Source: an uncultured Eubacteriales bacterium (GTDB taxonomy: Bacteria; Bacillota; Clostridia; TANB77; RGIG9151). Taken from it: DNA of 12,490 bases. The DNA is taken from the NCBI GenBank assembly GCA_964640345.1, contig CAZXFU010000038.1:1-12490 (forward strand), given 5' to 3'. Shown piece by piece: positions 10,037 to 12,273 of the stretch (position 1 is the stretch's first letter; every line of letters starts with the position of its first letter). The translations under genes were made by a program, and so were the position numbers. The notes beneath the pieces are model-generated. The model searched no databases. It had not been told where the DNA came from and saw only the letters and a list, made by a program, of their open reading frames with translations.

Positions 10037-10324
10037 CTATTGTTTTATTTGTGGTATAGACATTTTTGACGTATTACTTCCCATATTTTGGGCATTTTCT
10101 GAAGCTTGGCTTGTAATATTGCTTGTATCAATTTTTGTAGAAACGTTTCCATTTTGTGGTGTCTCCATACTTTTTATTGTTTGATTAATTTGTTGAGGTG
10201 TCATATTTCCATTATTTTTACCCGAATTGCTATTTAACCAATTCCCTGAGGCACCCATTACACTTACAAATAGTACTAAACAAGCTAGTCCTATGAATAC
10301 TGCAATCCAATTCCTGTTATTCAT
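10037..10324 (-). CDS. Hypothetical small membrane-anchored protein with an N/Q/S/T-rich extracytoplasmic tail
   Basis: It has an N-terminal hydrophobic segment WIAVFIGLACLVLFVSVMGA followed by low-complexity polar sequence. AAAGGAA lies about 11 nt upstream of the ATG. I recognise no homology. I prefer it over the overlapping + strand ORF 10227..10421, which has a TTG start and no SD. Confidence 0.5.
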   Translation of the reverse strand: MNNRNWIAVFIGLACLVLFVSVMGASGNWLNSNSGKNNGNMTPQQINQTIKSMETPQNGNVSTKIDTSNITSQASENAQNMGSNTSKMSIPQIKQ

Positions 10325-11341: not shown

Positions 11342-11614
11342 ATGAATAAGGCAGATTTAGTTTCTATGATCGCTGCAAAGAGCAATTTAACAAAGAAGGA
11401 TTCAGAGAGTGCATTAAATGCATTTGTTGAAACAGTACAAACAGCACTTAAGAAGGGTGAAAAGATTCAATTAGTTGGATTTGGAACATTTGAAATACGT
11501 AACAGAGCTGCAAGAACAGGTGTTAACCCTAGAACAAAACAAGCCATTAAAATACCTGCAACGAAAGCTCCTGTATTTAAGGCTGGAAAAGCATTAAAAG
11601 ATTCTTGTAAATAA
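11342..11614 (+). CDS. hup: DNA-binding protein HU
   Basis: MNKADLV...LVGFGTFEIRNRAARTGVNPRTKQAIKIPATKAPVFKAGKALKD is the canonical HU/IHF fold sequence. AGGAGG lies 8 nt upstream. Confidence 0.95.
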   Translation: MNKADLVSMIAAKSNLTKKDSESALNAFVETVQTALKKGEKIQLVGFGTFEIRNRAARTGVNPRTKQAIKIPATKAPVFKAGKALKDSCK

Positions 11615-11686: not shown

Positions 11687-11715
11687 TTGACTTTGCAGTA
11701 TACATAATATATAAT
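11687..11715 (+). promoter_or_regulatory. Strong sigma-A promoter driving the riboswitch unit
   Basis: TTGACT (11687-11692), exactly 17 nt, then TATAAT (11710-11715), preceded by an A/T-rich UP-like stretch. Confidence 0.7.
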
Positions 11716-11724
11716 AATAATATG

Positions 11725-11812
11725 AAATCCGAAATAGCAAACCGATTGAAAGGTCGGGGCGCAAAGCTACAGTCCTAAAGTCGTGAGACTATGGAGGCTG
11801 GGTTGCCGAAGA
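11725..11812 (+). promoter_or_regulatory. c-di-GMP-I (GEMM-I) riboswitch aptamer
   Basis: AGCAAACC-GAUU-GAAA-GGUC-GGGGCGCAAAGCU ... GACUAUGGAGGCUGGGUUGCCGAAG. This matches Vc2 from memory: GGCAAACC-AUUC-GAAA-GAGU-GGGACGCAAAGCC ... GGGGUUACCGA. It has the GNRA-capped hairpin, the CGCAAAGC junction, a P3 hairpin (CUACAGUC/GACUAUGG) and the GGGUUnCCGA 3' strand. Confidence 0.85.
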
Positions 11813-11830
11813 TAGAGGTAAGTTTGATCT

Positions 11831-11866
11831 CCGCTTTGGTAACTCGAAGTGGGGTTTTTCATTTTT
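11831..11866 (+). terminator. Riboswitch expression-platform terminator
   Basis: CCGCTTTG (11831-11838) pairs with CGAAGTGG (11845-11852), 8 bp with 2 wobbles and a 6-nt loop, followed by GGTTTTTCATTTTT. Confidence 0.7.
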
Positions 11867-12218
11867 AAGGATGTTTTCGTAAAGAAATGCCTAATTTAGT
11901 TGGGCGAATGAGAAGCGAGCTTGTTGGTAATTCGACTTATGAAAGGATGGTTGAATACTAGTTAGCAAGGAGGCTAAATTGCTTGGCAATGGTTAAGCGG
12001 TATAGCATGGAGGCTAACTACAAACTGACAGGTAAAGCAAATTTCAATTAAAGTTTTCTTTTTGTAACACTTGTTTTTTACATGACTGTTTTTTCGTAAC
12101 GGTGGTGTAAGTGAAGGAGGGGGATGCCAAAAGGAAACATTACTTAAAAATGATAGATGAAATGAGAGTTCGGTCTTCGGATTTGATAGAGGGAGTAGAA
12201 TCCCTTTTATATAGTAAG
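11867..12218 (+). ncRNA. Unassigned structured read-through RNA downstream of the riboswitch (no credible ORF)
   Basis: The segment is bounded by two + strand terminators. There is no ORF of 61 aa or more in any frame, and by hand only 5-26 codon ORFs. GC content is higher than the surrounding intergenic DNA. It has several clean hairpins and repeated GGAGGCTAA. The boundaries are inferred, not measured. Confidence 0.45.
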
Positions 12219-12260
12219 AAAAGAGCCTAATCGGTATCGAGATTTAGGCTCTTTTCTTTT
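12219..12260 (+). terminator. Strong intrinsic terminator closing the riboswitch-tail unit (looks bidirectional)
   Basis: AAGAGCCTAA (12221-12230) pairs with TTAGGCTCTT (12244-12253), followed by TTCTTTT. The reverse complement is also followed by a T-rich run. Confidence 0.8.
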
Positions 12261-12273
12261 AAAAGAAGAAATC

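Follow-up and report, generated by a model that had tools for sequence, protein, structure and literature searches.

A c-di-GMP-I riboswitch that appears to gate a structured noncoding RNA with invariant exposed GGA motifs in uncultured Clostridia

What does a riboswitch control when no gene follows it? This question is raised by a 12,490-nucleotide (nt) stretch of DNA from an uncultured Eubacteriales bacterium (assembly GCA_964640345.1, contig CAZXFU010000038.1), which we call the window. Between hup (HU, 11342-11614, plus strand) and rpmB (ribosomal protein L28, 12305-12490, minus strand) it carries a cyclic di-GMP (c-di-GMP) riboswitch and, behind it, a tail of ~400 nt. On the plus strand, to which all features described here belong unless stated otherwise, the order is HU terminator, promoter, aptamer, terminator, tail and tail terminator, convergent with rpmB, whose own terminator is a separate one (12303-12269 in the terminator scan). 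Having its own promoter and its own terminator, and no gene 3' of it, this plus-strand unit thus has its own start and stop signals. We conclude that the tail is a functional element, not a spacer, and that it appears to be the 3' domain of a ~540-nt noncoding RNA (~11722-12262) whose synthesis is decided by a c-di-GMP-I riboswitch. That this is a regulated structured noncoding RNA we regard as very probable. Our complete proposal, in which the riboswitch-gated RNA acts via titration of a GGA-recognising protein, is tentative, and we give it slightly less than an even chance.

Our comparison covered 15 distinct full-length tails (alignment A3), from metagenomes (for example ERZ27279218, JGI 3300029305 and SRR11880811) and two metagenome-assembled genomes (MAGs; CAZVVZ01, binchicken_co323_231, and JAEEXS01, Tb.RUG.527), with pairwise identities of 66%-99.8% (median 74%). 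All 15 share the order promoter-aptamer-terminator-tail-terminator, convergent with rpmB, while the upstream neighbour varies, being either hup or a LytR_cpsA_psr gene. The RNAalifold consensus of A3 has 92 pairs, in which 98.0% of the alignment cells form standard pairs, versus 40-50% when the 3' partners are slid by 1-3 columns. Compensatory (two-sided) changes occur in 11 pairs (0-4 after sliding), with a covariation score of 0.197 (versus 0.04-0.06); none of 500 column shuffles reached the observed pairing values. The plus strand of the window's tail folds at -128.1 kcal/mol, against -88.7 +/- 5.5 for shuffled sequences (z=-7.2), whereas the minus strand reaches only -70.7 kcal/mol (z=-3.9); such a difference between the strands speaks for structure at the level of RNA, with many G-U pairs, and not for a DNA palindrome. 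As a neutral benchmark, the third codon positions of mazG are 57% identical between the window and locus L035, and the spacer from hup to the promoter is ~170 nt in L035 versus ~70 nt in the window, with no evident similarity. The module nevertheless aligns throughout, which argues for purifying selection on it. The preliminary description of this DNA had read the tail as a functional noncoding RNA with switch-like alternative pairings and displayed look-alikes of Shine-Dalgarno and GGA sites, and its conservation, covariation, own terminator and lack of a conserved open reading frame (ORF) strongly support this reading.

The tail belongs to no family that we could recognise. Against Rfam 15, the window's tail gave nothing near a gathering score at E<=10, including no match to Intron_gpI or any ribozyme; two divergent homologue tails had no match, and across all loci there was no tail match at gathering thresholds. 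Two checks had been named beforehand, an Rfam search and an analysis of covariation; both were run, and they place the tail outside Rfam while finding covariation in 15 homologues. Readings of the tail as a T-box, group I intron, 6S RNA, toxin-antitoxin locus or miniature inverted-repeat transposable element were rejected on the grounds that there are no Rfam matches, that the ORFs are hydrophilic and unconserved, and that folding is strand-asymmetric. None of the ORFs keeps its frame, length or start across the 15 tails, the gene callers called no gene in the tail, and its small ORFs have no Pfam or NCBIfam match.

Transcription of the unit would start at ~11722, as predicted from a Sigma-70-type promoter (TTGACT-17-TATAAT, 11687-11715) that agrees with the consensus at 11/12 positions and whose two hexamers are kept in every homologue extending that far. 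The c-di-GMP-I aptamer (11726-11810) scores 75.4 bits (E=1e-13) with Rfam RF01051, whose gathering score is 35, and 13 homologous loci match this model at 73-76 bits. The expression platform, as predicted, consists of an intrinsic terminator with its U-tract (11829-11870, stem 11829-11854), located by the terminator scan, and an antiterminator (11801-11844) built from strands that also belong to the aptamer and to the terminator. In the latter, GGUUGCCGAAG (11801-11811) pairs with CUUUGGUAACU (11834-11844) in the unconstrained leader fold, whose minimum free energy is -47.0 kcal/mol; both strands are invariant among homologues, and by folding this helix competes for nucleotides at the base of P3, an aptamer stem, as well as for the 5' strand and loop of the terminator. 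With the Rfam aptamer pairs imposed on the fold, the terminator replaces the antiterminator, and the terminator stem shows compensatory differences between homologue groups. From these folds, the antiterminator would form without ligand and the tail would be transcribed; with c-di-GMP bound, the aptamer would keep the shared strand, so that the terminator would form and only a ~140-nt stub would be made. The switch modelled in this way is probably an OFF switch, in which low c-di-GMP would allow the tail to be made. The tail core (11860-12152) is closed by an 18-bp helix, P1 (11860-11878 with 12133-12152), which contains UAAGGAUGU and whose 5' strand is the U-tract of the riboswitch terminator plus UAAGGAUGUUUUC. 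Since P1 uses this U-tract as one of its strands, the tail can arise only by read-through. In P1, 98.5% of cells are paired; the 5' strand shows no variation, and the only changes in the 3' strand are G-U/A-U/G-C exchanges.

The most distinctive part of the tail is a two-fold symmetric dual-GGAG element (11961-12018) that reads GUUAGC-AAGGAG-GCUA, a covarying hairpin (11978-12001) and UAGC-A(U/G)GGAG-GCUAAC, so that the unit UAGC-ANGGAG-GCUA occurs twice. The duplication of GGAGGCTAA at 11969-11977 and 12009-12017, 40 nt apart, had been noticed in the preliminary description and is present as described there; the repeat extends to TAGCA[A/T]GGAGGCTAA, 15 nt at a spacing of 40, and the duplicated GGAGGCUAA motif is invariant across the 15 homologues. 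The arms of each copy are self-complementary, which allows two modes of pairing. In the nested fold, GUUAGC pairs with GCUAAC and GCUA with UAGC, leaving a 6x6 all-purine internal loop with AAGGAG opposite A(G/U)GGAG; in the other, each copy forms a local hexaloop mini-hairpin. Neither arms nor loop residues vary in 15/15, so that covariation cannot choose between the two folds. Both partners earlier suggested for the TTAGC arm are possible, with the local hexaloop fold 9-11 kcal/mol worse than the nested one. The long-range pairing of TAGTTAGC (11959-11966) with GCTAACTA (12013-12020) had been placed correctly, but only six of its eight pairs are conserved. Likewise, the letters of a small hairpin proposed at 11978-11990, ATTGCTTGGCAAT (ATTGC-TTG-GCAAT), are there, but it is superseded by the covarying 10-bp hairpin 11978-11987/11992-12001 with loop AAUG, four pairs of which have compensatory changes. 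In either fold and in all homologues, the GGA residues of the element are unpaired (p=0.96-1.0). The second copy reads AUGGAG in the window versus AGGGAG in all others.

Exposed purine motifs recur through the rest of the tail. Compared with dinucleotide shuffles, GGAGG occurs 3 times versus 0.58 expected (P=0.017) and ANGGANG, a motif chosen post hoc, 5 times versus 0.63 (P about 2e-4); the minus strand has 0-1 of any of GGA, GGAGG and ANGGANG. Besides the two invariant, always-unpaired CANGGANG elements 40 nt apart, there are three further conserved AAGGA(U/G)G sites. Columns of unpaired motifs are 98% conserved and 80% invariant, versus 73% and 29% for other unpaired columns, and four of the six invariant runs of at least 8 nt contain AAGGA or GGAGG. 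One such site, AAAGGAUG, lies in the loop UAUGAAAGGAUG of a hairpin (11930-11956) whose cells are 100% paired, with a G-C to A-U swap in six sequences; the motif is kept in 11/15, reads AAGGAAG in L058/L059 and AAGGAUA in L061, and is absent in L035. Another site, GGGGGAUGC, is unpaired with p=0.7-0.9. The block AAGGAGGGGGAUGC (12114-12127), a Shine-Dalgarno (SD) look-alike with an AUG 3 nt downstream, is invariant in 15/15. Conservation is narrower for two of the GGA triplets: outside the window, GGA m7 is found in L017 and L035 alone, and GGA m9 in no homologue. We also sought the dual-motif core as a target in ~240 kb of related sequence and found none outside the tails.

Based on this motif anatomy, we propose that the tail may act in trans through its invariant exposed purine motifs. 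A protein sponge, for example for CsrA, and a trans-acting small RNA had both been suggested earlier, and the data are compatible with either. The main sites would be the two symmetric C-ANGGAG-G elements 40 nt apart, with AAAGGAUG and GGGGGAUGC exposed too. The mechanism we prefer is titration of a dimeric RNA-binding protein that would recognise GGA or SD-like sites, for which CsrA is the best candidate. We take the exposed C-ANGGAG-G elements to fit the CsrA/RsmE hairpin-loop consensus, the AAGGAUG sites presumably resemble the CsrA consensus obtained by systematic evolution of ligands by exponential enrichment, and we assume that the 40-nt spacing of the CANGGANG sites suits one CsrA dimer. 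Capture of CsrA at low c-di-GMP would release CsrA-repressed mRNAs, e.g. that of flagellin. As c-di-GMP and motility are usually inversely linked, release of flagellin at low c-di-GMP would match. Read from the sequence, trans-acting titration of some factor is a possibility that we rate a little below even; that CsrA specifically is the titrated factor seems rather doubtful. We know of no RNA antagonist of CsrA in Gram-positive bacteria, and the boldest form of the proposal, that the tail is the first such antagonist in Firmicutes, its dual C-ANGGAG-G and accessory AAGGAUG sites capturing CsrA dimers at low c-di-GMP, must be called unlikely.

Several observations weigh against our complete proposal. 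The nine GGA triplets counted in the preliminary description are there, but they are no enrichment (9 versus 8.2 expected in dinucleotide shuffles, P=0.43). Two sites are always exposed and two partly so; only about 4-6 sites are present in 400 nt, and the ~4 conserved accessible GGA sites are far fewer than CsrB or RsmZ-type sponges carry. An elaborate covarying scaffold makes up most of the RNA and would be superfluous in a simple sponge. AAGGAGG is also simply the SD sequence of Firmicutes, so that CsrA sites, SD mimicry and RNA-RNA pairing look the same at the level of sequence. Finally, all 15 homologues come from one narrow clade and many columns are invariant, among them the key dual-GGAG helices, which covariation therefore cannot test.

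Judged by analogy, the closest working analogue of this RNA is EutX of Enterococcus faecalis and Rli55 of Listeria, where a small RNA (sRNA) begins with an OFF riboswitch for adenosylcobalamin (AdoCbl) and sequesters the ANTAR regulator EutV by a 3' dual hairpin (PMC8237595). The layout of these RNAs, a 5' riboswitch, no ORF and an own terminator, is found here as well and is kept in 15 homologues. The likeness extends to the OFF riboswitch as the 5' part (here inferred from folding), a full-length RNA that would be made only without ligand, the lack of a downstream ORF, and a duplicated structured 3' motif as a potential protein platform. In contrast, the ligand here is c-di-GMP rather than AdoCbl, the tail is larger (~400 nt) and more elaborately folded, and the motif copies lie 25 nt apart, nested around a hairpin and preferring the 6x6 internal loop.

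Given this design, the tail could be an ANTAR-type decoy whose two hexaloop mini-hairpins sequester a dimeric ANTAR-domain antiterminator at low c-di-GMP. In the alternative fold, both hexaloops do have A1 and G4 in 15/15 on stems of 4-5 bp, the defining features of ANTAR substrates (PMC3369931), and the design of a 5' OFF riboswitch, a full-length RNA only without ligand and a 3' dual-hairpin protein platform is that of EutX/Rli55 (PMC8237595). However, the linker of 25 nt (11978-12002) is itself a covarying hairpin and compares with 5-12 nt in natural eut targets, where lengthening it to 14 nt abolished function (PMC3369931); the hairpins do not overlap a terminator; the two-hairpin fold is the one disfavoured by 9-11 kcal/mol; and ANTAR recognition requires no invariance of all six loop positions, of the AAGGAUG sites or of the GGAGGGGGAUG site, all of which are invariant here. 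With no ANTAR gene seen in the window either, we hold an ANTAR decoy to be improbable. A base-pairing RNA or SD mimic, which is unlikely in our view, would instead bind RNAs rich in C and U via the exposed GGAGG and GGGGGAUG; these could be a C-rich sRNA, sponged as RoxS is by RosA, mRNA elements with an anti-SD-like sequestering effect, or 16S rRNA at its 3' end. Three strong SD look-alikes pointed out earlier, AAGGAGG at 11967, GGAGG at 12009 and GAAGGAGGGGG at 12113, are indeed present and conserved, with GGAGG enriched as given above; two of them are always single-stranded, and none heads a conserved ORF, those starting at the look-alike 12114-12127 not being conserved. Yet the AAGGAUG-type sites are poorer SD matches and equally conserved, and ~240 kb of related sequence, a tiny sample, held no complementary partner. 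The two-fold symmetry of the dual element would also suggest a dimeric protein over an RNA partner.

The tail could also encode a tiny peptide (MKEGDAKRK, start 12111) or a uORF-like (upstream-ORF-like) element whose translation remodels P1. An AUG/GUG start followed by KEGDAKRK codons is found in 14/15 sequences, three of the four substitutions in the first nine codons are synonymous, and most have a weak, purine-rich SD-like tract 6 nt upstream of the start. The ORF at 12111, however, is 39 aa in the window and 11-18 aa in most others through frameshifts and stops, it is frameshifted in one subclade, and its start is lost (ATA) in L057; a frame that stays open for 62 aa in L017 is interrupted at varying places in other tails. 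The synonymous excess is not significant (about P=0.1, a binomial estimate), RNA pairing accounts for the same nucleotides, and neither protein families nor gene callers recognise the peptide, which leaves this reading very improbable. A purely cis role, in which the tail refolds or clamps its own aptamer and so tunes sensing or stability, has in its favour the 5' leader AAAUCCGAA (11725-11733), complementary to UUCGGAUUU of the tail (12176-12184; inverted repeat I5, 13 nt, 92% complementary). This helix has a pairing probability of ~1.0 in the full-length folds of six out of six homologues; its strands are both conserved, without clean covariation, and it is predicted to join both ends of the full-length RNA. 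In addition, a direct repeat, CCGAAAUAG / CCGAAGAUAG, flanks the aptamer (11725-11733; 11805-11810), and the tail bears a complementary tandem UUCGG(N2)UUCGG, which together with the leader could clamp both aptamer flanks in the full-length RNA. The other route to a cis role was the preliminary idea that a duplicated aptamer strand in the tail refolds the aptamer. In the window, ATGGAGGCT at 12007-12015 is indeed identical to aptamer positions 11791-11799, but the other 14 sequences read AGGGAGGCU and share only GGAGGCU (7 nt), so that with AUGGAG being peculiar to the window the 9-nt identity is not conserved; moreover, the full-length folds of six homologues keep upper P3, for which the copy in the tail would have to compete, and predict no pairing of aptamer P3 with the GGAGGCU copies, so that the idea is not supported. 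Termination is decided before the tail exists, and a clamp leaves 400 nt of conserved structure and invariant exposed motifs unexplained; we hold a purely cis role to be very improbable. Least credible is a non-functional spacer or decayed gene remnant between riboswitch and rpmB. The lack of an ORF or a known family and the narrow clade would suit it, but covariation, strand-specific folding, invariant blocks and a conserved dedicated terminator do not, and the adjacent spacer has diverged in length and sequence; the conservation and covariation of A3 effectively refute it.

Returning to titration of a GGA-recognising protein, the classical sponges CsrB/C and RsmX/Y/Z resemble the tail in being noncoding RNAs with their own terminator and with conserved unpaired A(N)GGA motifs, two of which, in the tail, match CANGGANG. 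Unlike them, the tail has no sequence or Rfam kinship with these RNAs, a much lower site density and mostly long covarying helices; it is under a riboswitch rather than a two-component system and is found in Clostridia, for which no antagonist other than the protein FliW is known (PMC13443453). The hag leader of B. subtilis has two GGA stem-loops to which CsrA binds, and the sole CsrA antagonist known there so far is a protein, FliW, not an RNA (PMC13443453). For control of RNA by c-di-GMP there are examples in C. difficile, where c-di-GMP-I riboswitches lie upstream of the noncoding RCd11/RCd12 antitoxins, with a further orphan between CD2517 and CD2517.1 (PMC11477304). These too have a c-di-GMP-I aptamer that controls an RNA, not a protein-coding gene, in a Clostridium-class organism, but RCd11/RCd12 are short antisense type I antitoxins, whereas the tail is long and highly structured and has neither a toxin ORF nor an antisense partner. 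C. difficile also has a tandem of c-di-GMP-II riboswitch and group I ribozyme. The tail shares with this tandem a c-di-GMP aptamer joined to a noncoding RNA, but matches no group I intron or ribozyme model. The merRNA of Bdellovibrio, in which the c-di-GMP aptamer serves as the noncoding RNA (PMC3627812), is essentially the aptamer alone.

Riboswitches that gate noncoding RNAs instead of genes are rare. EutX/Rli55, the best understood among them, revealed a metabolite-controlled protein decoy, of which the tail would be a c-di-GMP version. A riboswitch-gated noncoding RNA is therefore already known as a kind; new are the RNA itself, its ligand context and the symmetric purine-loop element. The gated RNA is large, supported by covariation and a member of no described family. 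If CsrA binding were true, a long-standing gap would be filled and an RNA-only path would lead from c-di-GMP to translational control; as a CsrA sponge, the RNA would tie c-di-GMP directly to the translation of flagellin and to motility without a protein effector. Whatever the partner, the two-fold symmetric all-purine 6x6 loop is a well-defined, testable RNA recognition element.

The remaining parts of the tail fold are as follows. Enclosed by P1, a hairpin GCCUAAU/GUUGGGC (11889-11905) has a compensatory C-G to U-A change in four sequences, and L017 and L035 have other, self-complementary sequences at this place. Domain 1 (11919-12033), a three-way junction, is closed by a 10-bp stem (11919-11928 with 12024-12033) with 100% of cells paired, seven pairs varying on one side and two on both, and carries the hairpin 11930-11956 and the dual-GGAG element. 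The Domain 2 hairpin (12070-12119) has a U-rich 5' strand that pairs with AUGAAGGAG, and a variable apex; its 14 pairs are formed in 96% of cells, two show compensatory changes, and the apex helices differ in sequence yet stay self-complementary. Two invariant GUUUUC copies (11873-11878 and 12053-12058) compete for a single GAAAAC strand (12133-12138), and the choice between extending P1 and extending Domain 2 is a possible conformational switch within the tail. Farther 3', a weak hairpin GAGUUCG/CGGAUUU (12166-12184), seen in individual homologue folds, includes the invariant UUCGGAUU, and its 3' strand is the one that pairs with the 5' leader. The letters of the cUUCGg tetraloop hairpin described earlier, GGTCTTCGGATT at 12172-12183, are in place, but outside the window its second stem pair is always C.A or G.A, and what is preserved is the weak GAGUUCG/CGGAUUU hairpin. 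The hairpin AGAGGGA/UCCCUUU (12188-12207) stands as described, with seven pairs, 98% of cells paired and one-sided changes only. It is followed by AUAUAGUAA (12209-12217), an invariant run in all 15 homologues that is predicted to be single-stranded, and by the tail's own intrinsic terminator (12216-12262), whose perfect 15-bp stem (inverted repeat I2, 100% complementary; 12216-12258) lies between a run of A and a run of U. This terminator looks bidirectional, and a hairpin with U-run occurs at its position in every homologue, with differing sequence.

The module was seen only in a few uncultured gut or rumen Clostridia. Loci L026-L038 and L057-L060 were reached via L28 proteins at >=89% identity; L017, a GTDB MAG with the whole module, was found by a scan for the aptamer 3' end, and L061, from the second MAG (Clostridia bacterium Tb.RUG.527), by a scan for the most conserved block. 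In L28 relatives at 79-85% identity there is no gap behind rpmB that could take up the module, which is absent from them; its distribution is thus limited to a narrow clade of uncultured Clostridia. In these module-free relatives (L039-L048), a Y1_Tnp (IS200-like) transposase gene stands at the tail position, ~120 nt downstream of rpmB and convergent with it. MazG relatives in GTDB genomes, three loci at ~62% identity, have neither riboswitch nor tail, and at 73-90% identity their contigs break just past hup or at the tail start. The independent metagenome contigs of L011, L012, L013, L015 and L016 stop either less than a few hundred bases past hup or precisely where the tail starts, which suggests strain variation or assembly trouble at the locus. 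Exact-protein matches of HU and L28 gave only near-identical same-species contigs with no useful variation. A scan of metagenome DNA with GCAAGGAGGCTAAATTGC returned chance matches only, the pattern being too specific to the window (most homologues read CTAGATTGC), and no real match to the tail was found among the viral contigs, plasmids and phages searched.

Some features of the flanks may be added. The remaining genes of the window are housekeeping genes. On the minus strand, a 95-aa ORF at 10037-10324 has no Pfam match but is called as a gene in same-species contigs; relatives have unannotated ORFs of 104-130 aa upstream of mazG on the same strand, matched to it by position only. In the spacer after hup, some relatives have long imperfect palindromes (L012 5214-5401, with 56-nt arms that are 89% complementary; L014 5040-5161, with 25-nt arms), which resemble small inverted-repeat insertions and are absent from the window. 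In module-bearing relatives, a tRNA gene lies directly upstream of rpmB (~90 nt upstream in L026-L036; 1880-1960 in L017), where the window itself ends at the rpmB start codon.

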